Sequence record: NC_048170.1
Strand: one strand, 5' to 3'
DNA: 64,000 bases
From: Escherichia phage vB_EcoM_Goslar
Shown here: positions 961-63,980 of the stretch, piece after piece
Numbering within the stretch: position 1 is the stretch's first letter
How the letters are laid out: each line of letters starts with the position of its first letter
The notes under the pieces: model-generated
What the model was told of the DNA's origin: nothing
The model's database searches: none
Seen by the model: only the letters and a program-made list of their open reading frames with translations
Position numbers and translations under genes: made by a program

Positions 961-990
961 ATCCTCCCAACCCGTAAGGGAAGGGAGGAT
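961..990. terminator. GC-rich stem-loop between convergent genes
   Basis: atcctccc-aa-ccc GTAA ggg-aa-gggaggat inverted repeat between ORF ends at 940 and 1007. Confidence 0.5.
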
Positions 991-1006
991 GGGGTGGTGG
1001 GTTATG

Positions 1007-3160
1007 TTATTCTGCGGTTTCTTGCTTCGGTAAATAACTTGCTGCAATGTCTTGGGCTAACAATGTATTGTTTTTATTCGAGATGAAAATACCGTAACTT
1101 TCCATTAACGCGTAATACGAACGAACGAGCGTAGAGATCAATCGACGAATATCCATACCTTGAATAAAGATATCAGGAAGCCCGGAGGCTTCGATCACCG
1201 GTAATGGTATCGTTAAGTTGCTTATCGTTTTCTTATCGTTACGTACAATCCAATCACGGAAACGTTGTTGTAACCCTTTATCCTCCCAGGAATCAATCCA
1301 ATCGTTAAGAAGCGTTTTGTTCTTCGTCGCCAACGGCACACGAACCCCAACATAGGGCGGTTCCTGGCAATGGCCGTACGATTGAGCAAACACCTCTTCC
1401 CACATATCGTAAGACTGTTTCGTTACCGCAACATGTGGCTTCACTTTAACACGTGTTAAGAAATCGGGATCACCTCGTTTCATGGACTCAACGATTTCGT
1501 TTTCTAACGAGATAATATCATCAAGAACCAATCGAATGCTGATCTTCTCGTTACGTAACAGCTTATCCATGATACCACACATCATGCGTTCAACACGTTT
1601 GACGATCATTTTTGGTGCTGACGCGTCACGCATAACCGGACCTTTCAATTCCAGCTTCGGTGGGTTGATAGGAACCCCCTCACGCATGGTCATGTAACCG
1701 TAATAGTTTTTACCCATCGAGGTTAACGACAGAATCAAGAACATATATTCGTTCTTCATTTCCATCACGTACATATGCTCTTTCGCTACACCGATATTAC
1801 CAGAACACATCGCCATCAGATGAACCGTAATCTGCGTAACCAGATAGATAAGCGTATTTGCTAAGCGCGTCGAAACTGGATTGATCTCCATATTTCCAAA
1901 TCGCCACTGCACCCACTCCTGGCAGGTAAACACCGTCGAGTCGGTATCAGACAACACACCCACTTCACGGATTGCTGATGGGAAAGCATAAACGCCAGCC
2001 GGTTGGTTCTCGGTACGCCAGAATGCCATAATCAAATCTGCGTAGCTTTGAATACGCTGTAGCATTAATTTTGTCGTCGCCGCAGTAAGACGATAACCAA
2101 GTTCATTTCCTTTTTCTAGCGCTACGTAAATCGCTTCCCCGTTCAAGAACTCCGTGCATTGTGCTGTAATCCAAGCGACCGTGTTGTTATCCATGGAAGC
2201 AATAATGGCTTTAGCCTCTTCCATCGTTTCAACAGGTTCGGATGCCAGCTCACATAACGAGTCAAGAAAATCTCGAACAAATTCAGGATTAAGCTCACGT
2301 AACGAGTACAGGTTATTGCTGTACATGTAGCAGGCACGTTCCAACGGTGTTAAACCGGTAATTAACTCCCGGATAGTCAGTTCTTTCTCTGGGTCGAAAG
2401 TATATCGATGCAAGCATTTCGATACGTTAGCCCAAACCTCTTCCGGCGTAGGGTAATGTAGTTTGTATTTTACCATTACCTGCTCAATGGCTTTGCGATC
2501 GCTGTTACGAACAATACTTACGATGTTTTCAATTGCGATATCACAATCGTAATAATGGAAATTGCCCGCAAGGAAGCGTTCGTTGTTCGCATTGGCTGAA
2601 CCTGAAGCACAGCGACATGTTGTCGTTAAACTTGGATGCGCGATCGGATTATAAAAAGGGTTAAACTTGGACGCCTGGGTTCCTGACAAACTGTTGTTGT
2701 CTAACTTGGTGTTGGTTTGTCGTTTATCGTGTAACTCAGCTTCGTCTTTACGTCCGTGTGCTTGCGCTATCGACATTTGTTTCTTTTGTTTCTTACGCAA
2801 CTTACCGTTTTCAACCGCGAAGTCGCTTAGCACACTGGAACGTGTTTCACGTGGATAACAGTTAGCCCATACCGGCGTGATAATTAAATTATTTTCTTTA
2901 ATATCATTGAAGTATTGGCTGAACTTGATGACTTCTTTTTCACGATTTCCTTCGGTACGCTGTGTTAATACAAGACAGTCGGGATCAACCATCCCGTATT
3001 TTCCACCGGGACGAACCGTATCAAGGACAAACTGCAACGCTTCCTGCTGTGATATCCCACGCATGCGCATTAAGAACAGGGTATAATCCTGTACCGCTTC
3101 TTTGGTCATATCCAACGTACGACCATATCCGTTTTCATCGTAAAAGAACGGATTTTCCAT
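1007..3160 (-). CDS. large hypothetical protein with DTDS motif (possibly polymerase-related)
   Basis: 717-aa ORF; segment GVLSDTDSTVF resembles family-B polymerase motif C, but other motifs not found in expected order. Confidence 0.45.
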   Translation of the reverse strand: MENPFFYDENGYGRTLDMTKEAVQDYTLFLMRMRGISQQEALQFVLDTVRPGGKYGMVDPDCLVLTQRTEGNREKEVIKFSQYFNDIKENNLIITPVWANCYPRETRSSVLSDFAVENGKLRKKQKKQMSIAQAHGRKDEAELHDKRQTNTKLDNNSLSGTQASKFNPFYNPIAHPSLTTTCRCASGSANANNERFLAGNFHYYDCDIAIENIVSIVRNSDRKAIEQVMVKYKLHYPTPEEVWANVSKCLHRYTFDPEKELTIRELITGLTPLERACYMYSNNLYSLRELNPEFVRDFLDSLCELASEPVETMEEAKAIIASMDNNTVAWITAQCTEFLNGEAIYVALEKGNELGYRLTAATTKLMLQRIQSYADLIMAFWRTENQPAGVYAFPSAIREVGVLSDTDSTVFTCQEWVQWRFGNMEINPVSTRLANTLIYLVTQITVHLMAMCSGNIGVAKEHMYVMEMKNEYMFLILSLTSMGKNYYGYMTMREGVPINPPKLELKGPVMRDASAPKMIVKRVERMMCGIMDKLLRNEKISIRLVLDDIISLENEIVESMKRGDPDFLTRVKVKPHVAVTKQSYDMWEEVFAQSYGHCQEPPYVGVRVPLATKNKTLLNDWIDSWEDKGLQQRFRDWIVRNDKKTISNLTIPLPVIEASGLPDIFIQGMDIRRLISTLVRSYYALMESYGIFISNKNNTLLAQDIAASYLPKQETAE

Positions 3161-3221
3161 AAATCCTCCAAAAGTTATTTAGTCTGTCTACATCATCTCG
3201 TATATCTGTTAAAAAAGAAGG

Positions 3222-3234
3222 ACGGCATAAAAAA
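3222..3234 (-). promoter_or_regulatory. TTTTTTATGCCGT box following a UUCG-loop hairpin
   Basis: minus-strand hairpin ccgatctggc-TTCG-gctggatcgg then TTTTTTATGCCGTCC, about 70 nt upstream of ATG at 3160. Confidence 0.4.
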
Positions 3235-3458
3235 GAACCGATCCAGCCGAAGCCAGATCGGTTAAAAAGGATAATAACTGACAGAAAGATATCGATGATG
3301 TTCGTGAAACAAGATCTTCTCTCGTGTACAATGATGCTAGATCAGAGGGAGGTTGTAACACGAGAGGTGGTTCGCCAAAGAAGGAATAAAAACACGAACC
3401 TATCTTATTTCACTGATGGCACTAACCACTCAAAATATATAGTACTGTATGTAAAAGT

Positions 3459-7269: not shown

Positions 7270-7280
7270 ACGGCATAAAA
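7270..7280 (-). promoter_or_regulatory. TTTTATGCCGT box following a UUCG-loop hairpin
   Basis: minus strand: agcctgtcc-TTCG-gggcaggct then TTTTATGCCGTG, 12 nt before ATG at 7257. Confidence 0.45.
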
Positions 7281-7310
7281 GCCTGCCCCGAAGGACAGGC
7301 TCGATAGAAC

Positions 7311-8593: not shown

Positions 8594-9436
8594 ATGGGTG
8601 CTATTGACTACAGTGTAGATCGTATCTGTCGTACAATACCGGCAGACATCCTACAGTATTGCTATATCGATCGCTACGACTGGCGTAATCGCTATCCTCG
8701 TTCCGTAGAAGACATCATTACCGATTGGGTAATCCGTAAACGGGTTATCGGCGACATCGATATCTACGGGGGACTACAAACCGTTATTCCCCTTGATGAT
8801 GCCGGTGTCACTATCGAAGAAGTCACCATCAACTGTTATGTTTTCCACATTCCGTTGGAAGCCACGCAGGGACGTTATATCACGTCTGCATTATCCATTA
8901 TCTCAGGGAGCGTGAACAACTACGGAATAAACTATAACGGGCAATGGGGCGCTTTCAACCAAACCCAATTTCAACGTCAGCTTTGTGGGTGGAACCCCGC
9001 AAGCAACACGTTACAGCAAGGGATGAACGCGTTCGGTCCCATGAACGTTCTTAGTACAGCCAACGTTGATATCATCGCACCTAACACCATCATGGTGAAC
9101 AACGTCACGCCGGTACAATTTCCCCTGAGCCTACGCTGTTTCCTTGCCCACGATCCGGAACTTACCAACCTCAGCATGGAGGTTTGGAACGACTTCTACA
9201 AACTCTGTTTATACGCCACACAAAGTGACATCTACAACAGAACCGTTATCCGTCTCGATAGAGGTGTTACAGCACAAGGACAAGAAGTCGGTGCATTCAA
9301 GGAATACATCGATCGCTTTGCCGATGCTGAAAACACATATCAGGAATTCCTGAACGAAACGTGGGCTGGCGTTGCTGCCTGGAACGATCCACAAACTAAA
9401 CGTCGCGCCATTCGACTACAAACCGGTTACTTCTGA
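8594..9436 (+). CDS. hypothetical protein
   Basis: 280-aa ORF. Confidence 0.55.
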   Translation: MGAIDYSVDRICRTIPADILQYCYIDRYDWRNRYPRSVEDIITDWVIRKRVIGDIDIYGGLQTVIPLDDAGVTIEEVTINCYVFHIPLEATQGRYITSALSIISGSVNNYGINYNGQWGAFNQTQFQRQLCGWNPASNTLQQGMNAFGPMNVLSTANVDIIAPNTIMVNNVTPVQFPLSLRCFLAHDPELTNLSMEVWNDFYKLCLYATQSDIYNRTVIRLDRGVTAQGQEVGAFKEYIDRFADAENTYQEFLNETWAGVAAWNDPQTKRRAIRLQTGYF

Positions 9437-9963
9437 TTAACGACAGCTTCCTCCCTCGGCGTTTTCGAGGGAGGTATTTGCCGTTTGAACACTTTCAGCA
9501 TGTTCGCAAAATCAGCAGCAATAATACAGGCCGAGCTTGATAGCTTATTGCTGAAAATGAGATCGTCCGGTAAACAATCGAACTGAATACCGTATTGCGT
9601 CTTTGTCTCATCAACGATCAATGATGGTGTCGATCTTGTCTTCGCGATGTCGGTGATATACAAACGTAAAAATAATTCACCGTCTTCGCTATCCATAAAA
9701 CGATAAGCGTTACCAGAAAACGCAGCATGCGGCGTAACGATAAATTGAACACGATCGTCGGTCGGATGGATATTTAACCAACGTTCGATATCATTACTAC
9801 TCACATTTCGCATATTTACTACGGTAAAAGCAAATAGCGTATCGTGATGTTTGGAATAATGCAGCACATACGCCGCATCTTTCTTTCCGTGAATCCCTTC
9901 AATGTATTCTATTGTCGTATAGCCGGATTTATATAGCTTTACTTGCGGTTTATCACTCATCAT
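9427..9963 (-). CDS. hypothetical protein (start at ATGATG overlapping upstream stop)
   Basis: ATGA-type overlap with stop of 9960..10259. Confidence 0.45.
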   Translation of the reverse strand: MMSDKPQVKLYKSGYTTIEYIEGIHGKKDAAYVLHYSKHHDTLFAFTVVNMRNVSSNDIERWLNIHPTDDRVQFIVTPHAAFSGNAYRFMDSEDGELFLRLYITDIAKTRSTPSLIVDETKTQYGIQFDCLPDDLIFSNKLSSSACIIAADFANMLKVFKRQIPPSKTPREEAVVNQK

Positions 9964-10259
9964 AACAACCCTTCCCGTTTCATCGCGGCACGCATACTTG
10001 CGTAAAGCGCATTCTTCATTGCACCCGGACGCAACGGATAACAAATCTCATATCGACGTCCTTGTTTTACAGCAATTTTCCTTCCGTTCAGAAACAACGT
10101 GCCGTTATCCAGCAACAACTCACCTTGTAGTACCATGAGTCCTGCTTTAACATGACGTCCTTCTTCTTTAGTTAAGACCTTATAGCCGTGTTTATCCAAT
10201 AACCACAATTCGTAGATACCGTGCGCAGCCTTCGGCATTACTTTCTTCTTCGTCGTCAT
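9960..10259 (-). CDS. hypothetical protein
   Basis: 99-aa ORF. Confidence 0.45.
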   Translation of the reverse strand: MTTKKKVMPKAAHGIYELWLLDKHGYKVLTKEEGRHVKAGLMVLQGELLLDNGTLFLNGRKIAVKQGRRYEICYPLRPGAMKNALYASMRAAMKREGLL

Positions 10260-14398: not shown

Positions 14399-15643
14399 AT
14401 GCTCATGTCTTCTATTTTACAGGTGTTTAATGCGCATGCGGAAGGCATTGACATCGACGAGTATTTTGTTAATCAGGTTATCCGTTACGCGACACGCTTC
14501 CGTACGCAAGACCAAGAACACATGCGTTTTTTCGGTGGGGTTCTGTTAGGTGTACAGAAAATCCGATTCACAACAAGACATAACGATACATGGTTTTCAG
14601 ACGTCTTGATGATGGATGAAGAAAGCTTACGACGCGATTTGAGTAAACTACCCTTCTACAATACGCAGACCAACCGTGTTGCCTCAAACGCCTTTAACCT
14701 AAGTTGCTGTTGGTTGCTTTATGCGATCTTCCACAGCAAACAAATCAAAAAAGAAAAGGTTCGTGAAGCCGGGATGCTTGCAGCAATGCAAGTCCTCCAT
14801 TATAAATTCATTTGCGGTCTGGTAGCACGACGTTATCCTTATAACGCTGATCCGGCTATCGCTATTAAAGCGTACGATGAGTTAACCCTCAAATCAGGCA
14901 TCAAGCGCATGAATAGCTGGAATGAGTACATCGACGAACGCTGTAATGCCATCATTGCGCGTAATAGTACACATTTCAGTCGTTGGTCAACCCTGGAACC
15001 TGATAGCGTCGCCGAACGTTTTGTGCGTGATGTGAATACCGGAATCCGTAAGGTTATCAACCGTATCACCGATACGTACTACGCGATGTACGAAGAAGGT
15101 AAGAAGATAGGCACGTCTTCTCAAACTGTAGAGTTAGACGATGGTCTCGCTGTCCGCGATATTAAACGCAACGAAACCACTTATCGTCAATATCTGTTCG
15201 AAATCGCTTATGACCGAACGAGTTTCGTTAAACGCGAACTCATGGTCGTCATCCTTGACGTACACCATACTACCAATCTTTTATCCCTTGAGCGAGCGTT
15301 AAGCTATATCAGCGCTAACGTAGAACGACCGACAAGAGACGGAAAACAGGTCTCTCAGATGTTGCGGCTTGTAATGGAGCATGCTATCGAGTATATCATC
15401 TTGAATAAGGTCGATATGCGCGATCTTACGTTCTTATTCTACATGCGTAACGTGTACACGTCTAACCGCACTAGCAACCCGAAACTGTTAGAACTGCGTA
15501 AAATTGGCTCTGAAGTCATTAAGAAAGCAACCAATGCGAGAAATGACGCTGAGGCTGCGGCGACACGCACCGGTGTCTTTCTGTATATCCTGCTTCGTGT
15601 GTTTAGCCGTAACTATTACGTTCGACGTGCGATGTCACGTTAA
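14399..15643 (+). CDS. hypothetical protein
   Basis: 414-aa ORF. Confidence 0.55.
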   Translation: MLMSSILQVFNAHAEGIDIDEYFVNQVIRYATRFRTQDQEHMRFFGGVLLGVQKIRFTTRHNDTWFSDVLMMDEESLRRDLSKLPFYNTQTNRVASNAFNLSCCWLLYAIFHSKQIKKEKVREAGMLAAMQVLHYKFICGLVARRYPYNADPAIAIKAYDELTLKSGIKRMNSWNEYIDERCNAIIARNSTHFSRWSTLEPDSVAERFVRDVNTGIRKVINRITDTYYAMYEEGKKIGTSSQTVELDDGLAVRDIKRNETTYRQYLFEIAYDRTSFVKRELMVVILDVHHTTNLLSLERALSYISANVERPTRDGKQVSQMLRLVMEHAIEYIILNKVDMRDLTFLFYMRNVYTSNRTSNPKLLELRKIGSEVIKKATNARNDAEAAATRTGVFLYILLRVFSRNYYVRRAMSR

Positions 15644-15796
15644 CAATGTAACGGTAAAACTTTACTGACGTTGGTTATTATTTGAAGCATAGGGCTTCAC
15701 CCAGGAGTACCATCCCTTTAAGTCGTTTGTCCTCTCCTGGTTAACTGTCGTTCTCTCACAGTGCTCGACAGACCAAAAATGCTCAGGCCTCATAGC

Positions 15797-15825
15797 CTCC
15801 TCTGGGAATGGAACCCAGAGGAGGA
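15797..15825. terminator. bidirectional terminator hairpin
   Basis: cctcctctggg-aatggaa-cccagaggagg between convergent genes. Confidence 0.5.
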
Positions 15826-15836
15826 CTATGTTTGCC

Positions 15837-16157
15837 TTAAAATTCAATGCGACCTTTTGTCGTAAACAATACACCTCTTTGCCAACAGAAAAGATCCTCC
15901 GATTGAGCGCAAACACGAATACCCGCATCGAATAGATGTTTTGTTCTAGCGCTTAAACAATCAGGATCTTCTACATACAACAGAAGACGTTGGCATTTAT
16001 TTTGAATGCGTTCGACAAGGATGTTCTTATCGCTTAAAATAAAATGCGCGTTATCTGTTAAGTTATCGTCGGTTTCCAGCTGCTTGACAAGTTTGATTAA
16101 AATACGTAATTGCTCAAGTGTGTCATGATCAAGTGAATCACCCATGGCGTACCTCAA
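15837..16157 (-). CDS. hypothetical protein (probable start MGDSLDHD a few codons inside the ORF)
   Basis: 106-aa ORF; RBS GAGGT before internal ATG. Confidence 0.45.
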   Translation of the reverse strand: MRYAMGDSLDHDTLEQLRILIKLVKQLETDDNLTDNAHFILSDKNILVERIQNKCQRLLLYVEDPDCLSARTKHLFDAGIRVCAQSEDLFCWQRGVLFTTKGRIEF

Positions 16158-18462: not shown

Positions 18463-18474
18463 ATAAACTCCTCC

Positions 18475-18501
18475 GATGGAGGGTGCCGGGCACCCTCCAT
18501 C
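18475..18501 (-). promoter_or_regulatory. hairpin abutting terminase RBS
   Basis: gatggagggtgcc/ggcaccctccatc inverted repeat ends 1 nt before GGAGG RBS of terL; also 3' of upstream gene. Confidence 0.45.
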
Positions 18502-18512
18502 GTTGTATTACC

Positions 18513-20252: not shown

Positions 20253-22843
20253 TCACCTTTGATTGTGTAAAACTTCGTGAAGTCCACGCGATCTTTCAAG
20301 AACTCACGACTGACACGTTCTAAGAACCGCAGTTGTTTAACCGTAACTTCGAGCGGCGTCCAACTGTCATGTGGATGAATAGAAACCATACGCCAATCGT
20401 AATTACATAACGCAGGATCGTAGTCATAGAACCATTTATACGGCTCCATGAAATCCATCAGTTTAACGTCCTGCATATCAGGATCGGGATCGATAACACC
20501 ATTGATAAGATCGTACGTTACGGCCATCAGCGTTGGACTGATAAGCTGGTATTTGTTTTCAATCGTTACCGGCGTATCGTACTTCACACGAGGGAAATAC
20601 AAGGACATATAGTCTTCAACGCGTTTATCGGTTTCAAGACTTTTGTCGCGTAGATAATACGTGTCTGTGTTCACGAGACCACGGATAGGGGCAATAACGT
20701 GGTAGATCGCATAAGGCACCCCATCGTTGACTTTGATGTCGGCAGGGTATTGCGTGTCCTCAGCTGTAACCACTTCGCTACGATCGTAAATACGTCCACC
20801 AACCACAATACGAACAACATGATCGTCACGAACATTAAACACATCGTCGTAAGAAAGCTGGTTATGCATCGTCCAACCGGTATCGTAAACGGTTTCACCG
20901 GTTAAGTCCGTACGTGGAAAACCAGTACATCTCACGGTAACCGTGTGCGTGTTCCCTTCACCGAAATACCGTTTCGCGTTGATCACGATCGTTGGCCATT
21001 TTACGATATAATCGATATCGCGTACCAAGCTGTAGCTTTTGGTTGCTTGCTCGTCACCTAACCATACTTCGATTTGACCGGGTTCGAAAGGCAGCGGATA
21101 TTCAACATCAATACCCGTCGTAACATCCAACCATACAGTGTGATTACGATGTTGTATCGTGGTCTTATACGCTAAGAAGTAGGTGTCGAACAATACTAAA
21201 CCGGTTTGCTTTCTTCCATCCAGCGACCATTTTATTACCCCGTTCTCTTCCGTTACCACAGAAGCATCGTCGGTAACATCCTTCCAGGTGTTCGCAACAG
21301 GTTGTCCGTTACGAAGGTTTACGCTATAACAGCGGTAACTCGCCCATTCACGGATTGGGACGTCGGCAACACCCATTACGTAATCAAGCGTTCTCCCACC
21401 AACACCCGATCGACCCTCAACATAGGACGTGGTTTCATATTGCGGATAAAAATGTCGGCCCGCCGGATGTTGCGTGATACCCAATAATAGACCGTCACTG
21501 TCGTACTCAAAGAACGTCGCATTTGCACGCAATCCCCATGGTACTTCAGCAGTAGGTGTACCCATATCGTCAGTAACGCGTTGTGGGCTATCTGCAACCA
21601 GTTTTGCCATCGCGTTATACCCGTAAGCGGAGGTCACCATGTCGATCGTGATATTGCTTTCCTTATTACGCATGATGCGCGTATAATCACTGGCTTCAAG
21701 GGTACGTGCAAAGAACTCAGGTATATTAGCGTTCTGTTCTAACATTGCACCGACGATGACGTCGTCTGGAAGTTTATACAATTCGTGGATGCGGTTATGT
21801 TCGAAGGTTAACTGCGTTTTCAGCCCACTATCGCGGACAACCACTTCCAGGGTTAAATCACGAAGCGATTCTGCTCCATCAACCCGTTCAACGAAGTAGC
21901 TGACATAATCAACAGGAATCCCGTAATCACGATGCGTGAGCATGCGGATACTATTTTCCTGGTTGGTGTGGTAATAACGCCCTTTTCCGTTAGGCCCTTT
22001 CACGTAGATATCAACGTCATCACGATACCGGATTTTAGTATCCGCTTCATCTTTCGGCGGATGAATAAGATACTTCACTTTTTTGTCCAGATCGCTGTTG
22101 TATGTTTTAAGATCTTCTACACGGAAACTATAACGATGAACAACTGTGCCATCATAGATGACCTGAATGCTATCGCCGATCTTAAAACTTGACGGTGGGA
22201 TGTCTTCAACCGCTTCACCATTGATGCTACAGTGCGTCCAACCGATCCCGGTTTCTTGGATCTTTTTACGCCAAGCGTATAGCTGACGCTGCCACTGTAG
22301 AACCTGCGTTGAACTGGTTACAATCCCGCCAAGGACATGCACCTCGCGTCCCGTCGGTTTCGTGTATGACGGATAGCCTTCCGCGAAGTCAGCATTGAGA
22401 TAGGTGCGCCAGTAATAATTGCCAACGCCAAGGTCAGCGATATTCGGTTGGTCGAGCACACAGACCAGCATCGTTTCGTTTTCCAGATTACCCGTCCACG
22501 TTAATGTCAACGGGAATTCTTTACCGTCCTCGGTATAGATATTGTAATACGATCCCTTCACTTCACAGAACTTGCTGAGTTCTCGCCACCATAACCGCCC
22601 AGCCCCGACATTAAAATCCTCCCCCATATGTCGTCCAATAACAAACACATGGAACGTATTCGTATCGTCAGGAAGATTGAATGTACGATGCCAAGCCGTA
22701 AAGTTTTTTACTGCGCCGGTCTTTCCGGTAATACGACGCATCTTGATACGATGCTGGTTGTCCATTAATGGACGGCAGTTCACATTCAGCGCAGCATGAT
22801 TTATCAAGTATTGCGCTGTAGGATTAGAAGCGTTCAACACCAC
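20249..22843 (-). CDS. large putative virion structural protein
   Basis: 864-aa ORF in structural region. Confidence 0.45.
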   Translation of the reverse strand: MVLNASNPTAQYLINHAALNVNCRPLMDNQHRIKMRRITGKTGAVKNFTAWHRTFNLPDDTNTFHVFVIGRHMGEDFNVGAGRLWWRELSKFCEVKGSYYNIYTEDGKEFPLTLTWTGNLENETMLVCVLDQPNIADLGVGNYYWRTYLNADFAEGYPSYTKPTGREVHVLGGIVTSSTQVLQWQRQLYAWRKKIQETGIGWTHCSINGEAVEDIPPSSFKIGDSIQVIYDGTVVHRYSFRVEDLKTYNSDLDKKVKYLIHPPKDEADTKIRYRDDVDIYVKGPNGKGRYYHTNQENSIRMLTHRDYGIPVDYVSYFVERVDGAESLRDLTLEVVVRDSGLKTQLTFEHNRIHELYKLPDDVIVGAMLEQNANIPEFFARTLEASDYTRIMRNKESNITIDMVTSAYGYNAMAKLVADSPQRVTDDMGTPTAEVPWGLRANATFFEYDSDGLLLGITQHPAGRHFYPQYETTSYVEGRSGVGGRTLDYVMGVADVPIREWASYRCYSVNLRNGQPVANTWKDVTDDASVVTEENGVIKWSLDGRKQTGLVLFDTYFLAYKTTIQHRNHTVWLDVTTGIDVEYPLPFEPGQIEVWLGDEQATKSYSLVRDIDYIVKWPTIVINAKRYFGEGNTHTVTVRCTGFPRTDLTGETVYDTGWTMHNQLSYDDVFNVRDDHVVRIVVGGRIYDRSEVVTAEDTQYPADIKVNDGVPYAIYHVIAPIRGLVNTDTYYLRDKSLETDKRVEDYMSLYFPRVKYDTPVTIENKYQLISPTLMAVTYDLINGVIDPDPDMQDVKLMDFMEPYKWFYDYDPALCNYDWRMVSIHPHDSWTPLEVTVKQLRFLERVSREFLKDRVDFTKFYTIKGE

Positions 22844-26918: not shown

Positions 26919-26958
26919 CTCCCTTCCTTCCCTAGCCGTCAAGGCCGGGGAAGGAAGG
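26919..26958. terminator. bidirectional terminator hairpin
   Basis: ccttccttccc...gggaaggaagg; T-rich on plus side, T12 run on minus side (26897-26908). Confidence 0.55.
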
Positions 26959-27923: not shown

Positions 27924-28026
27924 AGCGCTAACCCCAAAGGATAAAAATAAAACCTTGACATAACCACCACCGTAGCCCTGTATGGGGCTACGGTGGGGTC
28001 ATACAGAGAGACGTGTTAAGTTACAA

Positions 28027-29531: not shown

Positions 29532-29543
29532 ACGGCATAAAAA
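29532..29543 (-). promoter_or_regulatory. TTTTTATGCCGT box following hairpin
   Basis: minus strand: acctccttaccc-acat-gggtaaggaggt then ACTTTTTATGCCGTCA, about 90 nt upstream of ATG at 29442. Confidence 0.4.
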
Positions 29544-29725
29544 GTACCTCCTTACCCATGTGGGTAAGGAGGTTCGTCCATCACGACGAAAGGACGTTAT
29601 GTGACGCGGTGTCCATAACGGCCCTGGTAGCAGGCATTAAAGATAACAAAAAGGATGTAAGTTGAGCTAAACCACCTAAATACGGTAACGATTACTTCCG
29701 TACACAATATAACGCAACATCTTTT

Positions 29726-38266: not shown

Positions 38267-38446
38267 TTAGGCTCCACGAGGTCCCGTTAAGTTGCGTAAT
38301 AGGAACGCAACCGTATCGTAACCAATATCAATGTTGAATTTATTTTTACCACTTACCCAGAAAGCTCGCTTCTTGTGCGAGTTGGTAATTTCGTCAATAG
38401 CTTCCATGGAATAAAGAACGTTAACCGAGACCGTATCACCGTCGAA
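38267..38446 (-). CDS. RNAP beta-prime-like subunit, exon 2
   Basis: frame translates FDGDTVSVNVLYSMEAIDEITN...GYDTVAFLLRNLTGPRGA*, colinear with E. coli beta-prime after DFDGD; below 60-codon ORF-track cutoff. Confidence 0.6.
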   Translation of the reverse strand, partial: FDGDTVSVNVLYSMEAIDEITNSHKKRAFWVSGKNKFNIDIGYDTVAFLLRNLTGPRGA

Positions 38447-40440: not shown

Positions 40441-40490
40441 TTTAAAAGTTAAATTTGCCAGAAAACTGGCATTTTGTTAGCCTTTCCTTG

Positions 40491-41957: not shown

Positions 41958-42202
41958 GGAGACACTCCTCTTTACCACCACCGGCTGCGGCGGTATCATC
42001 TGAACACACGAGAGACGTAATGGGTGATGGCGTCACCCATCGCTTCCTTGCTTGAGGCGAGGAAGTTATTAGGTTACGTACCTGCGTGATAAAATCAAGC
42101 AGGCGATGTGTGAAGTTACGCTTCAACATTATCAATGCCGAAGGTAAACTTCGTGCATCACGTTCCAACGTAACATGGGAACGTATCGAACTGGAGGTAT
42201 AC

Positions 42203-48878: not shown

Positions 48879-48899
48879 AGGGCGGGAATCTCCCGCCCT
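48879..48899 (+). terminator. hairpin after giant gene
   Basis: agggcggga-atc-tcccgccct then TCTTCTT. Confidence 0.4.
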
Positions 48900-48917: not shown

Positions 48918-51059
48918 ATGGGTATTCTTGTTCAAAACGCCCTAATTACCAAACAAGCGTTTTTATTACCAGGCGATAGCAGCACGCTTAGTGCCGACAT
49001 GATTAAAGCGAGACATACACCGTATTCCTACGATAACGTCGATGATACCACCTTAGGTGGGAACTGGGTGCTTAACCCACCGCCGCAATATACCAAATTT
49101 GCCGACATCAAAGAACGCCGACGTGCGGTTATGCCGGGATCAACGGGCATGGGTCGAGGCTATAGTGAAAGCATTAACAGCTTTAAAGAGGTCGTTACGT
49201 TACGATTCGGTAAACCTCGCTTTACAGGCGCAAGTATCTTCTTTACTGATTTCTACGATGCGGATGTTGCCGTAACGGTTAAAACCGGTCGCGATCCCGG
49301 TATCCTTTATTACGCAGCCAAAGCGTATACCACCGTTCTTTCTTACCTCACACCTCTACCCTACTTGTATATGGTTGGACGTATTGGTCGATATTTCCTG
49401 GGTAAGCCTACCAGTCAATATTACTATCAAGTACCAACCATGCATGTGTATTGGGCGTCTTTCCAGACGCTGGTAAACCAAACAGCGATAAACATGGGTC
49501 TTATCGCCGGTGCCGGTAAAGATAAAGGCTACGTGGAAGAAGGAGGTACCGTACTCCATCAATATTCAATCGGTGGTCAGAACGTTGAAGAATTCATCAA
49601 CTACGCGTCTAAGACGCTACCTGGGATTTATAAGAAAGGTGGTGGGATCGATATCTACCAGATTGCAACACGTCGTCAGCGTATACAGAACGCATGGGTA
49701 CGTCGTATTCAATCCATGATGGAAAACGATTACTCGTCTTACGAAGAATTCTGGAACGATCTTGATAAACGACTTGATAGCGGAGCGTTTCCATCGGATG
49801 TAACCGGCCGTACGCTAACGCAGTATCTCGCCGACACACAGAAGTCTGCTGTTTACAGCGCGACAGCTGGTGATAATAAACAAACGATGGACGACCTTTT
49901 ATTCGGAAGGGCCTCGTACACCAATAAAGATGCTGACGCCAACTTCAATGTCTCAGCGGCTACCTCCGACGGAGGTACGTCAACACAGAGTCAGGGTACA
50001 ACAGCCAATGTCGGTAATTCAACGTCAGGGACAACACAGGCTTCAACAGCAGCATCAACAGCTGGAGGCGCGAACGTACAGAGCAAAGGAATCGGGCAAA
50101 CGAACGCAGCCGAAGAAGCTACGTTTCTTGATCTGATGGATGCTGAATTGGCCGACGGTGCTCAGTTCATCAGTTTTCGAGTCGATTCTGTCACCAGTGT
50201 AACCGAAACGTTTTCAAACAGCGCTTCAGAAAGTTCTATCGCGCAGACGATGAACAGTCGTGCGCAAGCGAACATCGAACGTCGTTTCACCCTCTCCGGT
50301 GGTAATACCGGTTGGGCTGTACTGGACGAAGCCATCAAAGCCGGTTCCGACCTCGTCAATGGTGCTATTTCCGGGATGGGTCTGGATGGTATTTTTGGTG
50401 CCTTCATGGGTTCCGGCTTCGCTGACATTCCGAAATTCTATTCTGGTTCATCGGTAAGTCTTCCGCGTGCAGATCTGACGATGGAATTACGTTCCTGGAG
50501 TGGGGATCGCTGGTCGATCTTTACGAACCTCATGGTACCTCTTTTAGCGATCCTTGCAGGCGGTTTGCCTCAGGCTACCGGTAAATCGTCCTACGGGATG
50601 CCGTTCATGTGTGAGTGTTATATTCCCGGTAAAGTCCAGATTAAAATGGGCCTTATCGACAACATCACTGTGACGCGTCATGTTGGAAACGTGCCGTCAA
50701 CACGTGAGCGGTTACCGTTAGGCATCGATGTCAGCTTCAGTGTTTATGATCTGTCGTCCATCGTCGCAATGCCGATCACAACGACAGCCGCATCGATCGC
50801 AAAATTAGATCCTCGTGGCTTCTTAAGTGATCTTCTTGCTGACGATACTCCACTCAACAACTATCTTGCTGTGTTATCGGCATTGACGCTTACGGAACAA
50901 GTTTACATGATTCCGGATTTAAGTCGTCGCATGCATAAAACCATGGCTGATATCGATAGTTTCTGGAGCAAAGGTAATTTTGCTAGCTGGTTGTCTGACA
51001 CCATGCCTGGCAGGATAGCATCAGGGCTGTTATGGAAACGTACAGAACGACCGTTCTGA
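48918..51059 (+). CDS. putative virion structural protein
   Basis: 713-aa ORF with Ser/Thr/Gly-rich central region. Confidence 0.5.
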   Translation: MGILVQNALITKQAFLLPGDSSTLSADMIKARHTPYSYDNVDDTTLGGNWVLNPPPQYTKFADIKERRRAVMPGSTGMGRGYSESINSFKEVVTLRFGKPRFTGASIFFTDFYDADVAVTVKTGRDPGILYYAAKAYTTVLSYLTPLPYLYMVGRIGRYFLGKPTSQYYYQVPTMHVYWASFQTLVNQTAINMGLIAGAGKDKGYVEEGGTVLHQYSIGGQNVEEFINYASKTLPGIYKKGGGIDIYQIATRRQRIQNAWVRRIQSMMENDYSSYEEFWNDLDKRLDSGAFPSDVTGRTLTQYLADTQKSAVYSATAGDNKQTMDDLLFGRASYTNKDADANFNVSAATSDGGTSTQSQGTTANVGNSTSGTTQASTAASTAGGANVQSKGIGQTNAAEEATFLDLMDAELADGAQFISFRVDSVTSVTETFSNSASESSIAQTMNSRAQANIERRFTLSGGNTGWAVLDEAIKAGSDLVNGAISGMGLDGIFGAFMGSGFADIPKFYSGSSVSLPRADLTMELRSWSGDRWSIFTNLMVPLLAILAGGLPQATGKSSYGMPFMCECYIPGKVQIKMGLIDNITVTRHVGNVPSTRERLPLGIDVSFSVYDLSSIVAMPITTTAASIAKLDPRGFLSDLLADDTPLNNYLAVLSALTLTEQVYMIPDLSRRMHKTMADIDSFWSKGNFASWLSDTMPGRIASGLLWKRTERPF

Positions 51060-51076: not shown

Positions 51077-51108
51077 CCCTCTCCCAACCCGTGAGGGAAG
51101 GGAGAGGG
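51077..51108. terminator. bidirectional terminator hairpin with GTGA tetraloop
   Basis: ccctctccc-aa-ccc GTGA ggg-aa-gggagaggg between convergent genes. Confidence 0.5.
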
Positions 51109-51114: not shown

Positions 51115-52182
51115 TTAACCTAACGTTACCGTCGGTAAATCAGGATAAAGTTTCTTCAAGCCTGCCATCGTGGTGGTAGTTGTATAATTCTTACCCATTA
51201 CGGCGAGAGATGCGTATTTCCTACTGCGGGAGAAAAGAGAATAGAACCCACTGGATGTTTCCATCCACATCGTGAGGAGTTCTGCATCGTTACCGTGATA
51301 GTTCGTTTTACCCCATCCAGGTTTAAACGCATCAGCAAAATCAATTAAACGCGAGGCTTCAGCGTCGTATTCTTTAAGGGTAATGTACGATGGAATGCGG
51401 TAGTTACGAAACAGTAACGTAATGAGTTCAGGGACAACGCTACGGGCACGTTCAGCCGTGATAAGTTCGGTGATCACAGCAGCTGTACGGAAATCGCCGT
51501 TAAGACCAACGCTGCTTAACGATTCCGCTAAAGTGGTCGCCATCGCCACTTTATCCTCCGCTGACCCAGAGTCATACAGACTACGCACATCGATGTAGTT
51601 GCCTGCTAATGCGGCTTGACGAATCAACGATGTGACAACTGTCCGGTTCGTCTTATAGTCGTTGTAGCTGAATTCGGTTCGCGTTTTCCCTTGATCGTCG
51701 AGATACCGATCGACAATCGTCGACAGTTTATAATACTCATCGCCCGACATCAGACTATCGAGAAGCTTAACGTTTCCATCTTTATCAATAAGCTTCCCTA
51801 ACGCGCCATTGGATTGCTGGTTAATGGTGCTGTAAATCTGGTCTTTTACTTGCGATAGGATGTTATCGGTTGACGATATATTCAGGCCAGTAACATCTTT
51901 GATCTTATTCATCAACGCATTTTCATTCAGGGAGATTTTGCCTCCGCTGATATCGATGAAAGAATTAAGATCGCTTATGGAAATCAGGTTTCCTGTTAAC
52001 GCCGATAATGTACTATTGATACTGTTCGTAATACTGCTGCGAAAACTGGTTAACGCATCCGCCGCTGAAACAGCGGTACCGCTAACCGCTTTAAGGAGCG
52101 TATCACGCCCTGTCGAAAAGTCACTGGTGATGGTTTTGATCTTGGACGTATCTATACTCGGCAGTTTGTCGTAAAGACTCAT
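51115..52182 (-). CDS. hypothetical protein (start MSLYDKLP)
   Basis: RBS GGAGG before ATG at 52182; ORF-track start is further upstream. Confidence 0.5.
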   Translation of the reverse strand: MSLYDKLPSIDTSKIKTITSDFSTGRDTLLKAVSGTAVSAADALTSFRSSITNSINSTLSALTGNLISISDLNSFIDISGGKISLNENALMNKIKDVTGLNISSTDNILSQVKDQIYSTINQQSNGALGKLIDKDGNVKLLDSLMSGDEYYKLSTIVDRYLDDQGKTRTEFSYNDYKTNRTVVTSLIRQAALAGNYIDVRSLYDSGSAEDKVAMATTLAESLSSVGLNGDFRTAAVITELITAERARSVVPELITLLFRNYRIPSYITLKEYDAEASRLIDFADAFKPGWGKTNYHGNDAELLTMWMETSSGFYSLFSRSRKYASLAVMGKNYTTTTTMAGLKKLYPDLPTVTLG

Positions 52183-52210
52183 CACGTCCTCCTGAAAAAG
52201 AAAAAAGAAA

Positions 52211-52220
52211 TACGGCATAA
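52211..52220 (-). promoter_or_regulatory. TTTATGCCGT box following hairpin
   Basis: minus strand agcctacccac-cattgt-gtgggtaggct then TTTATGCCGTAT, 29 nt upstream of ATG at 52182. Confidence 0.45.
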
Positions 52221-52264
52221 AGCCTACCCACACAATGGTGGGTAGGCTAAGATCAACATCGATG

Positions 52265-56133: not shown

Positions 56134-56475
56134 CTATTGTCGTGTCTGTTGCGGAAATACCCGAAACACCTGGACAATGATGTTCTTGTCCTCGCGGTTG
56201 GCGATGTCGATCATGTGTTTTGTTCCAGGACTTTTGAAATCCCAGAACGCAATTAAATGCGTAATGACATCGCCCATCCACTCATTGCGTCTGAATCCAG
56301 CACCTTTACGATAAGGGCCATCCCAATCGGCAGGAAACGTGGTGTATTTAAACCCGTAATCCTTCGCATAGCGGCGCACGTGCAAATCAGCACCTGAACG
56401 CGCACCGCCAGCAATGAGATGAACTTTGTCGTGAGGGAGGTTATGTAACATCTGGTTCATACGCTTTTCGAACAA
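56134..56475 (-). CDS. SLOG-fold / DUF2493-like protein
   Basis: LIAGGARSGADL...FPADWDG...GAGFRRNEWM...IAFWDFKSPGTKHMI. Confidence 0.55.
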   Translation of the reverse strand: MFEKRMNQMLHNLPHDKVHLIAGGARSGADLHVRRYAKDYGFKYTTFPADWDGPYRKGAGFRRNEWMGDVITHLIAFWDFKSPGTKHMIDIANREDKNIIVQVFRVFPQQTRQ

Positions 56476-58450: not shown

Positions 58451-59293
58451 ATGCATAAATTTACCATTCCTGAAGACCCGATTACACTGCAGACCCTTTG
58501 GGATTCACATCGTGCTTTATCAATGGAAGGCTTTGCGCAAGACTTCGCTTCACTTACCGCAGTAACGAACCTTCGTAGTATGTTTACTAACGGTAAGAAG
58601 TTCGTTACCGATTGGCTTAAGAAACGTGATGTGACGGTTTATCCTAAAGTCTTCGATGACCTCGATACCATCTTTAGCAACAACGCTTACAGCGATCTCA
58701 TTGGGTATCGCGCTTTTATTCCGAATGGTTTAAATGCGCCGATGTCAGATTATGTTGTCGCTTTAACCCAGAGTCTGGATAGCGTAATTGGCACCATCCT
58801 ACCCGATTTGGATAAGTTGACCGTAACGTGCGCTAAAGCCGTCAACGACGTTAACTTCCGTCGTAGTAGTGGTATGGCTCAAACACTACCTAAAAACGAT
58901 CCAGAGAACGTTCTAGAGACGTTACGTGCGATGTTCAAACAAGGGACGGTAACACAGACCACTGTAGGCCGTGCATATAAGAACGAAGATGATATTCGTC
59001 AGATCGGAAAAGATCTGGATGCTTCCCGTATCCGTGCGCTTGACGTTAATCCTAAAGACGTGAAGAAGGCAATCGAACGTTTCATGGAGGTAGCTGACCG
59101 TTTAACCGAAATCCTGGTTCAAGACTACAACGAAGGTGCGGTGAGTAACGCAATGATTCGCGATATTAGCGACGCTATCTACCAAACAGCCAAACAGGCT
59201 GAGCTGTATGCGTTTCTCGTGAACGCTTTGGCTGAGGCGATCATCGCATATAACGACACTTGGGACGCTGTTAAAAAGAACGCGAAAAAATAA
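58451..59293 (+). CDS. hypothetical protein
   Basis: 280-aa ORF. Confidence 0.5.
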   Translation: MHKFTIPEDPITLQTLWDSHRALSMEGFAQDFASLTAVTNLRSMFTNGKKFVTDWLKKRDVTVYPKVFDDLDTIFSNNAYSDLIGYRAFIPNGLNAPMSDYVVALTQSLDSVIGTILPDLDKLTVTCAKAVNDVNFRRSSGMAQTLPKNDPENVLETLRAMFKQGTVTQTTVGRAYKNEDDIRQIGKDLDASRIRALDVNPKDVKKAIERFMEVADRLTEILVQDYNEGAVSNAMIRDISDAIYQTAKQAELYAFLVNALAEAIIAYNDTWDAVKKNAKK

Positions 59294-59301: not shown

Positions 59302-59337
59302 CCCACCCTACTACCCCGTTAAGGGCGGTAGGGTGGG
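59302..59337. terminator. bidirectional terminator hairpin
   Basis: cccaccctac...gtagggtggg between convergent genes, followed by TTTATTTGCCGTAT. Confidence 0.5.
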
Positions 59338-59344: not shown

Positions 59345-59776
59345 TTATTTGCCGTATAGTTGTACCACTCGTTGTGTCGTAGGAACGCAGACTCTTACCA
59401 GAAGCTTCTTAATCTCCTGACGAATCGTTGCTTTATCATCATAATAAAGCCATGGCGGAACGCGTTGCATTATGCACTGCACGGCTTCATCGTAGTTCGT
59501 CGTCTCATTAAGTAACGTCTCACTATCCAGATCTTTCCATGCAGTAATACCAAGTCGCGCAGCAAACATCAACGCTGAAACCGACTCAGCTATCTCCAAT
59601 CGCTCATTCATATCCGCAAGACCTTTTAGCATGATGTAATTATCATCATGCTGATGTAAGGTGCCATACAAACTTCCGAAGAGAAGTATACGTTTAGCTT
59701 TTGCGGTTAAGAGGAACGACAGGAGAGCGTGTTTCAACGGTTGTTTCTCACGTTCTACCTGTTCGACCATCACCAT
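59345..59776 (-). CDS. hypothetical protein
   Basis: 143-aa ORF. Confidence 0.5.
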   Translation of the reverse strand: MVMVEQVEREKQPLKHALLSFLLTAKAKRILLFGSLYGTLHQHDDNYIMLKGLADMNERLEIAESVSALMFAARLGITAWKDLDSETLLNETTNYDEAVQCIMQRVPPWLYYDDKATIRQEIKKLLVRVCVPTTQRVVQLYGK

Positions 59777-61962: not shown

Positions 61963-63303
61963 ATGATTAGTATTTTTGGTTTTTATACGTACAAAGGGTA
62001 CGCTAATAACCACCCAAAAACCACGGCGAAATTCGGTGAGTTCAGTCAGCACAGTGCTACGTTCAGTCGCGAAATCGGCATCTATACCAACACGGCGTAC
62101 GCACGTACGACCTTATTAGTGTTGAATGCCGAAAACGAAGCTGGTGAAGCACAAACGCTGAATGACGACACCGCAGGCCGCATTCTTCAGGTTGGTCAAT
62201 GGTTGCTGGAAAAAGCCGCATCGGGCGAAATCCAGGAAGACCGAGACCAAGTTATCGATTACCTAAAAGACGACTTCACAACGTATCTGGATTCTATCGA
62301 CATCCCAACACCCACCACCGATGGCACAGTCTATCTACCAGCGTGGATCAGTTTCAAGATAACGGCCACCGGCGATGTTGTCAAGATTTGGTTGTCTGAT
62401 AGCGTATTCCAAAGTCAATATCCAAAATACGAATATGAAGTCGTTCCCCCTGTTCCTAAGGATCAGTTAGATACCTTCTTCGAAGATCTGGCAACATTGA
62501 AGAAACTGGTTGACAGTCGAAGCAGCGAGAAACTGACCGAAGAAATCAACGAGGTGCGCGACCAATTCCCAGACACACAATTGTGGACGAAAACCTATAA
62601 AGCGTACGATTACACCGACGATTCGAAATACATTAATACCGATTGGACGGTGATTATCTACGGTGCAGCAGGTAACAACATTGATAATATCAAGGAGTTC
62701 CTGCAAAACTGGATTCTTAGCAATAGCACGCACGGACGTCCAGACTGGGAAATCGTTCTGCCGGATCTTTTTATTCCGACGGAACACATCTTCATCCCGA
62801 TCTGGAACCGCCACAGTGCTCCAGAAATGACCAATCAGGCACGTATTTATAGTCCTATCTTCGATGATTCGTTGATGGATACCTACCTGAAAAACTTTGC
62901 TGATGGTTACGGCGAAACCGCCGAAGTCCGTAAGTCGCTTCAAGCGGTGCCGACGTTGTGGCGCTCGATCGGTTTCTTAAGTGTCGGTAACTCACGTAAC
63001 CGAGACGGTAAACTTAAGTTCTACGATCGTTGGCCACAATACGCGCTCATCAGCACAACCAGCATCGACATTAACCGTATCGACGATGCGACACGTGAAT
63101 TCATCACGTTCACTTACGAAATGCTGAAACTGGCAGAATCGCTCACCGAAGACGACCCGGTACCGTTGGGTTATAGTCGTGTTACGCGTGGTAGCAATAG
63201 CTTCTTAGCGAAAAGCCACAACGATGTTCAGTATCTCTTCTTAACAAAAGAAGCGTTCCTGAAGAAAATGCCGGATGAAGCCGACACGCCTGTTGGAGGT
63301 TGA
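61963..63303 (+). CDS. hypothetical protein
   Basis: start MISIFGFY with RBS GAGGA. Confidence 0.5.
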   Translation: MISIFGFYTYKGYANNHPKTTAKFGEFSQHSATFSREIGIYTNTAYARTTLLVLNAENEAGEAQTLNDDTAGRILQVGQWLLEKAASGEIQEDRDQVIDYLKDDFTTYLDSIDIPTPTTDGTVYLPAWISFKITATGDVVKIWLSDSVFQSQYPKYEYEVVPPVPKDQLDTFFEDLATLKKLVDSRSSEKLTEEINEVRDQFPDTQLWTKTYKAYDYTDDSKYINTDWTVIIYGAAGNNIDNIKEFLQNWILSNSTHGRPDWEIVLPDLFIPTEHIFIPIWNRHSAPEMTNQARIYSPIFDDSLMDTYLKNFADGYGETAEVRKSLQAVPTLWRSIGFLSVGNSRNRDGKLKFYDRWPQYALISTTSIDINRIDDATREFITFTYEMLKLAESLTEDDPVPLGYSRVTRGSNSFLAKSHNDVQYLFLTKEAFLKKMPDEADTPVGG

Positions 63304-63305
63304 TT

Positions 63306-63932
63306 ATGGCTGTAACACGCATGACGCCAAGTCCCGGTGCGGTCGGGGTATTCACAGTATCAGCGCCGTTTTCCGTTGGTACGTCAACGCTATATACCGT
63401 TACAGCGTTACGCCGATTCAGCGAAGTCATCGGTAGTGGAATCGATCTATTTACGGAACTGTACGAACCGTTATCAATAGACAAATCCACTTTCGAAGCG
63501 CATCTCGAAGCGAATGCTTATCTCGTCACGTTGCAACCGGATTATGGTGCGCCCGTACTGGTACCCGATACGTATATCACGTCGTACCCAAAGAACGATT
63601 CCTTGCGGTATCGTCGCATTATTCTGGGTATCGATTTCGGGCCTCTTCCTCCCGGTCTTGACCTTTCGTATTTAACAACGATATTGAAAGGTAAGGCTAG
63701 TGATATTCTTGGTGTCGAACCTGAAGTTAAAACGATGGAAATCACTCTCGATGATACCGTTACTCAGGAACAACATCAGATAAACGAAGCCCGTCGTCAG
63801 GCTGCGATAAAAGAACGAGATACCATTTACGCACGCTGTGAAACGCAAGAGAAGCAGATAACGGCTTTACTTGCAACCCAAAAGCAACTTATCAAATTGC
63901 TTCAAGACGCCGGTATCAATCCGACACCTTAA
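63306..63932 (+). CDS. hypothetical protein
   Basis: start MAVTRMTP with RBS GGAGG, 2 nt after upstream stop. Confidence 0.5.
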   Translation: MAVTRMTPSPGAVGVFTVSAPFSVGTSTLYTVTALRRFSEVIGSGIDLFTELYEPLSIDKSTFEAHLEANAYLVTLQPDYGAPVLVPDTYITSYPKNDSLRYRRIILGIDFGPLPPGLDLSYLTTILKGKASDILGVEPEVKTMEITLDDTVTQEQHQINEARRQAAIKERDTIYARCETQEKQITALLATQKQLIKLLQDAGINPTP

Positions 63933-63938
63933 CATATT

Positions 63939-63980
63939 CCCTCCTCCTTCCCTGATGGGTTGGAGGAGGGTTATGCCGTC
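63939..63980 (+). promoter_or_regulatory. hairpin followed by TTATGCCGTC box
   Basis: ccctcctcc-ttccc-tgat-gggtt-ggaggaggg then TTATGCCGTCAAGC then A16. Confidence 0.4.

Follow-up and report, generated by a model that had tools for sequence, protein, structure and literature searches.

In phage phiKZ, ONT-cappable-seq mapped 133 termination sites, 61 of which carry the motif BCCYCCCCHWWDGGGRRGGBYTTATKYYGT, and six regions between convergent genes were described as bidirectional terminators (Putzeys et al. 2024, PMC10914365). Phage 201phi2-1 has a genome-wide terminator motif like that of phiKZ, with 15 of its 132 termination sites being bidirectional, and a second motif (A+B) that lengthens the hairpin into a longer stem-loop; several of these terminators were functional in vivo in a terminator trap, and the authors link the long stems to antitermination resistance (PMC11512511). 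The phiKZ non-virion RNA polymerase (nvRNAP) recognises late promoters through a TATG element, the G of which is +1, and GP123 binds the non-template TATG (PMC12809450). Here we analysed a family of GC-rich hairpins at the gene ends of Escherichia phage vB_EcoM_Goslar (NC_048170.1) in a 64-kb stretch of its genome with a GC content of about 46%, referred to below as the window. By analogy with the systems above, these hairpins are quite probably phiKZ-type transcription terminators that act in both directions at convergent junctions. The window carries genes for split RNA polymerase (RNAP) beta-like subunits, tail sheath, large terminase, DNA polymerase and a UvsX-like recombinase, and this phiKZ-like core gene set identifies the phage, on gene content, as a phiKZ-like jumbo phage. 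The virion and non-virion multisubunit RNAPs expected of this class were counted as present from the beta-like subunit genes, which could belong to either enzyme.

Two-tier hairpins and their T(T)ATG tails

A reading of the window's sequence alone (the sequence-only reading) had singled out five GC-rich stem-loops, and all of them were confirmed in place, at 961-990, 26919-26958, 51077-51108, 59302-59337 and 63939-63970. They fold on both strands with energies of -23 to -29 kcal/mol (z -4.35 to -5.36), and 0/200 shuffled sequences were as stable. The hairpins at 961..990 (ATCCTCCC-AA-CCC-GTAA-GGG-AA-GGGAGGAT), 51077..51108 (CCCTCTCCC-AA-CCC-GTGA-GGG-AA-GGGAGAGGG) and 63939..63970 (CCCTCCTCC-TT-CCC-TGAT-GGG-TT-GGAGGAGGG) have a common design, in which an outer stem of 9 bp, its 5' arm made of pyrimidines and its 3' arm of purines, is topped by a 2x2 AA/AA mismatch, a CCC/GGG stem and a 4-nucleotide (nt) loop; read from the opposite strand, the mismatch is TT/TT. 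The 14-nt core AACCCGTRAGGGAA that had been ascribed to the first two is exact at 969 and 51086, and it recurs on the minus strand at 63948 with two mismatches. The third hairpin had been described as the same design reversed, and it is indeed flipped (TT/TT on the plus strand), but its loop in the AA orientation is ATCA and not GNRA. The kinship proposed for the hairpins at 26919 and 59302 extends to the two-tier design, but not to the AA/AA mismatch, which is replaced by a TA/CG interruption, nor to the loop, which has 5-6 nt. The first of these (26919..26958) has an 11-12-bp stem of pyrimidine and purine (Y/R) arms, a GCC/GGC apical stem and the loop GTCAA, and the second (59302..59337) reads CCCACCCTAC-TA-CCC-CGTTAA-GGG-CG-GTAGGGTGGG, with CCC/GGG as its apical stem. 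A third copy of the TA/CG type is present in a relative (L004, position 4417).

The hairpins had been placed at convergent or tandem gene ends. We found all five at convergent junctions (5/5) and none at a tandem one (0/5), the minus-strand partner gene downstream of 63939 being seen only in the relative L002, which is 97.7% identical to the window. Across the window, a Y/R hairpin with the same stability on either strand stands at 7/7 well-supported convergent junctions; two other convergent junctions in our rough gene map were set aside, as they involve an intron block or doubtful small open reading frames (ORFs). A 5' arm rich in C and pyrimidines and a 3' arm rich in G and purines are found in all five hairpins and in those at 9448 and 15796.

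Both strands of these junctions carry a short TATG-containing tail. The hairpin at 961 lies between 5..940(+) and the DNA polymerase gene 1007..3160(-), with TTATG at 1002-1006 on the plus strand and CATAA, which is TTATG on the minus strand, at 936-940. At 51077, between 48918..51059(+) and 51115..52233(-), the tails are AATATG (51109-51114, plus) and TTATGCAGT (51065-51073, minus). The hairpin at 63939 follows 63300..63932(+) and is flanked by TTATGCCGT (63971-63979, plus), which fits the phiKZ TTATKYYGT, and by AATATG (minus; the reverse complement of 63933-63938). At 26919, between 26003..26893(+) and 26971..27510(-), we found TTTATGG on the plus strand and GTTAATATGC followed by T12 on the minus strand (A-run at 26899-26910), and at 59302, between 58451..59293(+) and 59345..59776(-), TTTATTTGCCGT (plus, ending at 59355) and TTATTATG (minus). 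Because an upstream CATAA is the TTATG of the other strand, each converging transcript would meet a hairpin followed by UUAUG. The window itself ends in an A17 run (63984-64000), and the A12 run at 26899-26910 is placed likewise. In L002 (5421-5480) a second strong hairpin comes after the A17 run; with T17 on the minus strand it would form a canonical U-run terminator for the converging gene, so that the 63939 junction would combine classical and phiKZ-type elements.

When both strands of the window were folded in a 44-nt scan, about 18 strong intergenic hairpins emerged; where a U-run would be expected after the stem, the strand of the upstream gene has T(T)ATG, in many cases as TTATGCCGT. 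Of 25 sense-strand cases, 15-16 have TATG no more than 16 nt past the stem, where the background is 3.5% (P about 3e-16); at one-way sites, the antisense strand has it in 1 of 11. It starts 1-6 nt past the stem, and its G thus lies 5-10 nt from the stem base. Exact copies of TTATGCCGT number six in the window where about 0.5 would be expected for a 9-mer, and five of the six stand directly after hairpins; TTATKYYGT occurs 15 times against 6.8 expected. At the five hairpins this longer tail is exact at 63971 (+) and has one or two deviations at 51065 (-) and 59344-59355 (+), with looser TTATG or TATG tails at 961, 26919, 51077(+) and 63939(-). We rejected a start-codon or Shine-Dalgarno reading, in which 3' arms like GGAGG would be followed by an ATG: the tail ATGs open only a few codons (at 29532, ATG CCG TCA TTT TGA), the sole exception being the ATG at 18462, in the tail of the hairpin at 18474, which is the terminase start codon. 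The AT-rich sequence TATATTAC, considered as an early-promoter motif, was not enriched (three matches against 2.4 expected).

Relatives of the window allowed us to follow these hairpins through evolution. A DNA search of INPHARED (50,697 phage records; 3-4 kb around 51077; near and distant modes) gave no match, and the window proteins show only about 35% identity to those of cultured jumbo phages; because these are relatives only at the protein level, their orthologous hairpins cannot be aligned. Six or more metagenome and IMG/VR contigs (183-249 kb) are 94-98% identical to the window over the common stretch, a seventh relative (JACXXQ010000003) is 84-88% identical, and the contig L010 is a more distant relative, with 30-42% protein identity only. 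We scanned IMG/VR with the 18-nt core CC-AA-CCC-NNNN-GGG-AA-GG, which yielded many copies in two big close-relative contigs, and assessed the family by a regular-expression census and pair counting. The census gave 23 copies at about 14 distinct sites (14 or more in the lineage), with an outer stem of 9 bp (8 and 11 bp in two). When the 23 copies were aligned, seven of the nine outer pairs changed on both sides and none on one side only, 99.6% of cells were paired compared with 49-65% in slid-alignment controls, and 23/23 copies kept the pyrimidine-5'/purine-3' polarity. The inner 18 nt were invariant, a result that is partly circular because many copies were retrieved with the core as the search pattern. 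About nine of the sites are convergent and four to six tandem, and the flanks of paralogous copies are unrelated save for CATA(A) upstream and (T)TATG downstream.

Two G.U pairs, worth 4-5 kcal/mol, form in each of the one-way hairpins at 3236, 7279 and 16190, and they do so on the sense strand alone; the stems at convergent junctions are perfect Watson-Crick palindromes with no G.U. At 18474, relative A has a compensatory change of a C-G pair to T-A, and relative B has the intermediate, a G.U pair on the sense strand; at 27967, the stem changes in relatives A and B remain paired (G.U) only on the minus-strand (sense) RNA; and the hairpin at 48879-48899 shows a compensatory A-T to G-C change in L028 and L033. 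Overall, these patterns indicate that constraint acts on the RNA of the transcribed strand or strands. In L010, the tails behind one-way hairpins read TTTATGCCG or TTTTATGCCG, and one convergent junction has an AA-type hairpin with another outer stem.

Probable two-way termination and its nearest alternatives

We assign the hairpins to the phiKZ-type terminator class because the motif tail, the grammar of L010 and the hairpins of the type found in phage Miami (see below) agree, and we infer by this analogy that transcripts end at them. The bidirectional action that the sequence-only reading had thought likely is thus upheld, with support that is indirect, namely the phiKZ-type tail on both strands at convergent junctions and the phiKZ precedent; the comparison with related phages that it had called for shows the same tail grammar in phiKZ and in L010.

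In the mechanism that we propose, the phage's own multisubunit RNAPs would use the hairpins as terminators. The RNA would form a stable stem, rich in pyrimidines on the 5' side and in purines on the 3' side, with T(T)ATG following 1-6 nt later, and the lower 9-bp stem and the tail would be the working part. The TATG past the stem would be captured by the TATG-reading polymerase subunit as the active site reaches its G, which would be possible because the TATG-recognising subunit stays in the elongating enzyme. Upon capture, the polymerase would pause with a weak U/A-rich hybrid, 5-10 nt away from the base of the stem, as hairpin-driven release requires. A single protein-DNA contact would then serve twice, by setting where transcription starts and by causing the pause during which the upstream hairpin frees the RNA. 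At convergent sites, a symmetric palindrome flanked by CATA(A) and (T)TATG would be a two-way terminator and 3'-end cap, and the two-tier AA.AA/UU.UU hairpin with its CATAA/TTATG flanks would be a dedicated symmetric module that stops two converging polymerases. The generalisation that phiKZ-like phages have replaced the U-run by a polymerase-read TATG element also used in late promoters, together with the double use of the contact and the dedicated module, is tentative, and we put its chances rather low.

Several points weigh against termination at these sites. T counts over the first 8 nt past the stem range from 0 to 5 among the five hairpins and do not exceed 4 in those of AA type, and none of the five is directly followed by the uninterrupted U-rich tract (at least 5 T in 8 nt) that marks a canonical Rho-independent terminator; having no canonical U-run, they fail the classical terminator definition. 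A consensus terminator scan of positions 1-20000 lists the hairpins at 15796 and 18474 and not that at 961. The 18-nt pattern of 3' arm plus tail from phiKZ, searched alone, gave five matches where 2.4 were expected, which is not significant, with four of the five being hairpin sites. A stem change in the hairpin at 33891 in relative B produces an A.C mismatch on the sense strand. TATG is also the late-promoter element of phiKZ, and because ATATGCCGT occurs without a hairpin upstream of a structural gene, the tail might be an adjacent promoter and not part of a terminator. The role in termination that we give to the beta-lobe pocket is our own hypothesis.

It is possible, but in our view unlikely, that the hairpins are 3'-end stabilisers or processing boundaries, with polymerases reading through and the RNA then being trimmed by a 3'-5' exonuclease or cut by an endonuclease. 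Stems that are very stable on both strands, their position at gene 3' ends and the want of a proper U-run would all fit such a role, and we read the ONT-cappable-seq method as giving 3' ends that cannot alone separate termination from processing in phiKZ. A block to an exonuclease, however, needs no strand-specific conserved tail such as TTATGCCGT past the stem, and the terminators of like type in phiKZ and 201phi2-1 are classed as intrinsic, several of those in 201phi2-1 being active in the terminator trap. Stabilisation or processing and termination are also not mutually exclusive.

We give an equally low probability to the T(T)ATG(CCGT) tail being a late promoter or initiator of the next transcription unit that merely adjoins the hairpin, termination being left to the hairpin and a few Ts. 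This reading draws on the phiKZ late-promoter consensus TATG with G at +1, on tandem-context tails, which sit upstream of the next gene, and on the hairpin-less ATATGCCGT and several TATG in a divergent region upstream of tail-sheath and head genes. Both-strand tails at convergent junctions, on the other hand, would fire antisense transcripts into the opposing gene; the published 3'-end-anchored phiKZ motif itself includes TTATKYYGT (PMC10914365); and the phiKZ late promoter P119L, the sequence of which we checked, lacks both the YYGT extension and a hairpin in front of it. The divergent region (23772-23914) lies between 22824..23771(-) and the tail-sheath gene 23915..25987(+) and holds a hairpin-free cluster of TATG on both strands, with ATATGCCGT at 23788-23796 (-), 17 nt before the start of the minus-strand gene, and three TATG no more than 70 nt upstream of the tail-sheath start. 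These elements may be late promoters of the TATG type known from phiKZ.

Inversion of the hairpin tips

Among genomes that are 94-98% identical (the window and the relatives L020-L033), the segment between the arms is reverse-complemented at 8 of 21 hairpin sites. The inversion is exact at 961, 12750-12775, 29546-29573, 48879-48899 and 51077 (five sites), and is accompanied by extra substitutions at 26919 (one), 27967 and about 42092-42110. The tip at 961 reads AA-CCC-GTAA-GGG-AA in the window and relative B and TT-CCC-TTAC-GGG-TT in relative A. In relative B, the 15-nt tip of 26919 is inverted and the 2-nt loop of 29546-29573 is flipped, and the loop of 48879-48899 is exactly reverse-complemented in L020 and L032, which are non-sister genomes. 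Of the orthologues of 51077 in eight genomes, five are of the AA form and three of the TT form, with the loops GTGA, GTAA and ATCA plus the flipped TGAT, TGTT and TGCT; in the AA orientation these are five loops (GTGA, GTAA, ATCA, AACA and AGCA), of which only GTGA and GTAA are GNRA. The stems stay identical while the 51077 loops are hypervariable. The loop at 63939 is TGAT/ATCA, and L002 has a 5-nt loop there. With 8/21 sites flipped among genomes that are only 2-6% apart, inversion between the arms is far faster than substitution, and because the tips invert between near-identical genomes, one and the same transcript alternates between AA/RNNA and UU/UNNY forms. This fast inversion cautions against giving strand-specific meaning to an asymmetric tip seen in a single genome.

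These observations bear on the further role that the sequence-only reading had given to the internal loop as a site of protein or RNA recognition. The AA/AA internal loop and GNRA-like tetraloop could be a recognition element for a phage or host RNA or protein factor, such as a nuclease, a factor for termination or anti-termination or one by which the phage nucleus exports or localises mRNA, acting beside or instead of termination. The 18-nt core does not vary across 14 or more sites whose outer stems covary, L010, with 30-42% protein identity, has this core on another outer stem at a convergent junction, and the tetraloops in the AA orientation are all R-N-N-A (GTAA, GTGA, GTCA, ATCA, AACA and AGCA), compatible with a GNRA-like fold. 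Set against this, the tips at 961 and 51077 are inverted between genomes that are 96-98% identical, a single site has five loop sequences in eight genomes, no loop that is GNRA on one strand across orthologues and paralogues was found, and 4/4 tandem-context copies show the UU form, not AA/GNRA, on the sense RNA. The mismatch is replaced by pairs in variants (L013 at 4093; phage Miami), the AA/AA core is not over-represented outside the lineage (6 contigs, compared with 10 and 8 for the paired controls AG/CT and TA/TA), and its invariance is in part an artefact of retrieval. We therefore consider a recognition element improbable and do not retain that part of the earlier claim. The AA/AA (or UU/UU) mismatch with its CCC-NNNN-GGG cap is most likely, judging from these comparisons, a lineage-specific build of the hairpin's upper half. 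Two features call for an explanation of their own: many sites, and L010 as well, retain the mismatch, and the Y-5'/R-3' polarity holds throughout, in phiKZ too.

A role at the DNA level, as a cruciform, as a palindrome for a dimeric protein in replication, packaging or recombination, or as a mobile repeat resembling repetitive extragenic palindromes (REP) or miniature inverted-repeat transposable elements (MITE), is very improbable: perfect G.U-free palindromes at convergent sites, near-identical copies scattered across the genome and frequent tip inversions, which show that the arms interact as DNA, would suit it, but the copies are confined to gene 3' ends, the one-way members have their G.U pairs and tail on the transcribed strand only, and a two-way RNA hairpin itself needs perfect symmetry. 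A REP/MITE-like mobile repeat was rejected, as we found no presence/absence polymorphism at 21 sites in three genomes and at the five comparable sites near the gene for a 713-residue protein in up to eight, no similarity beyond the hairpin and short tail, no terminal repeats and no target duplications.

Other hairpins, a group I intron and known terminators

Two further Y/R hairpins lie at convergent junctions. That at 9448..9476 (CCTCCCTCG-GCGTTTT-CGAGGGAGG) begins 12 nt past the stop of 8594..9436(+) and has the plus-strand tail TATTTGCCGT. The convergent ORFs 8594..9436(+) and 9427..10044(-) have 10 nt in common, and the hairpin falls within the last ~17 codons of the latter (protein end IPPSKTPREEAVVNQK*); the terminator would therefore be partly coding, or the 3' end of 9427..10044(-) is mis-called. 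The hairpin at 15796..15824 (CCTCCTCTGGG-AATGGAA-CCCAGAGGAGG) separates 14399..15643(+) from 15837..16157(-) and has CTATG tails on both strands. One-way hairpins on the minus strand are found at 3222..3263 (stem 3236-3263, then CTTTTTTATGCCGT, with TTATGCCGT at 3222-3230), upstream of the DNA polymerase gene; at 7270..7302 (GAGCCTGTCC-TTCG-GGGCAGGCTT, then TTATGCCGT at 7270-7278); at 27967..27996 (a 12-bp stem, then TGGTTATGTC); at 29532..29573 (a perfect 13-bp stem at 29546-29573, then ACTTTTTATGCCGT at 29532-29540); and at 52212..52248 (stem 52221-52248, with TTATGCCGT at 52212-52220 immediately after). The minus-strand hairpin at 18474..18502 lies between a virion protein gene and the terminase gene and is followed by GAGGAGTTTATATG, and the plus-strand hairpin at 48879..48899 (GGGCGGG-AATCT-CCCGCCC), after the gene for a 2260-residue protein, has the T-rich tail TCTTCTT and no TATG. 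A very stable hairpin at 56367-56410 (-27.4 kcal/mol, on the minus strand only) lies inside the coding ORF 56134..56475(-), has no TATG tail and shows one-sided stem changes in relatives; it is probably outside the hairpin family.

A search of the window against Rfam 15 at the gathering threshold matched no family at the hairpins, and its sole match was a group I intron at 38510-38938. The intron (RF00028, 67.7 bits; core on the minus strand, region 38447-40491) splits one of the two RNAP beta-like subunit genes, which are at 33917..38263 and 40449..41999 (phrog_3148 and phrog_2986), about 60 codons before the gene end, and carries an HNH endonuclease ORF (38931..40403). In L020 the gene is an uninterrupted ORF of 562 residues; in the window it consists of 516 residues (40449..41999) and an exon-2 ORF of 46 residues (38267..38407). 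Near-identical genomes differ in the state of the intron, which is absent from L020 and L028, present as a core without the HNH ORF in L021, L033 and L029, and present with the HNH ORF in the window, L030 and L032. In phiKZ, likewise, the HNH gene PHIKZ056 adjoins the RNAP beta subunit gene PHIKZ055.

Small "flip-flop" inversions of hairpin loops between short inverted repeats are best known from chloroplast non-coding DNA. As in that case, the segment between the arms is exactly reverse-complemented between very close genomes, and recurrently per site; the present case differs in concerning a phage lineage and terminator hairpins, and in that the inverted unit may be a whole mini-hairpin of 14-15 nt. 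Canonical Rho-independent and bidirectional terminators likewise have a GC-rich hairpin at gene ends, with symmetric convergent versions acting both ways, but they rely on a 7-9-nt U-run, or A-run and U-run flanks, where the window has CATAA and TTATG(CCGT). In the Klebsiella jumbo phage Miami, the convergent gp216/gp215 junction has an annotated terminator that is a Y/R hairpin with a CCC-GTRA-GGG cap, and such hairpins occur in several IMG/VR viral contigs of 220-230 kb; the positions that are AA/AA in the window are Watson-Crick paired (TA/TA) in Miami, and the tails differ too. Motifs A and A+B of 201phi2-1 were likened to the window hairpins by motif description.

The closest likeness is to phiKZ. 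Its terminators also have a C-rich 5' arm, a G-rich 3' arm and a short loop on the sense strand after genes, and a TTAT-K-YY-GT tail that replaces the U-run; GGAGGAGGG-TTATGCCGT at 63962-63979 of the window fits the tail of the motif exactly. We checked the phiKZ sequence and found hairpins such as GCCTCCC-TTCG-GGGAGGC-T-TTATGTTGT and, at the convergent PHIKZ031.1/032 junction (25213-25242), CAGCATAA-GCCCTCCC-ATTGC-GGGAGGGC-ATTATG, with TTATGCTGT on the other strand; here too a palindrome flanked by CATAA and TTATG serves both strands at convergent genes, in a phage with two multisubunit RNAPs. The two differ in that phiKZ stems have 7-8 bp and loops of 4-5 nt, whereas the window hairpins are two-tiered (9-12 bp, a 2x2 mismatch, 3 bp and a loop), in that the tail consensus of the window (TTATGCCGT) is sharper, and in that the phiKZ terminators were mapped experimentally and those of the window are predicted from sequence. 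That the TTATKYYGT tail is kept between phages with only about 35% protein identity suggests that sigma-less phage polymerases may terminate by a sequence element and not by a U-run. The hairpin and TTATG grammar could serve to annotate the ends of transcription units, including two-way stops at each convergent junction, in uncultivated nucleus-forming jumbo phages that have no transcriptomes, and the modules could act as compact bidirectional insulators in engineering such phages. Taken by analogy, the hairpins described here extend the known phiKZ terminator class, and the two-tier AA/AA form appears to be a lineage-specific variant of it.

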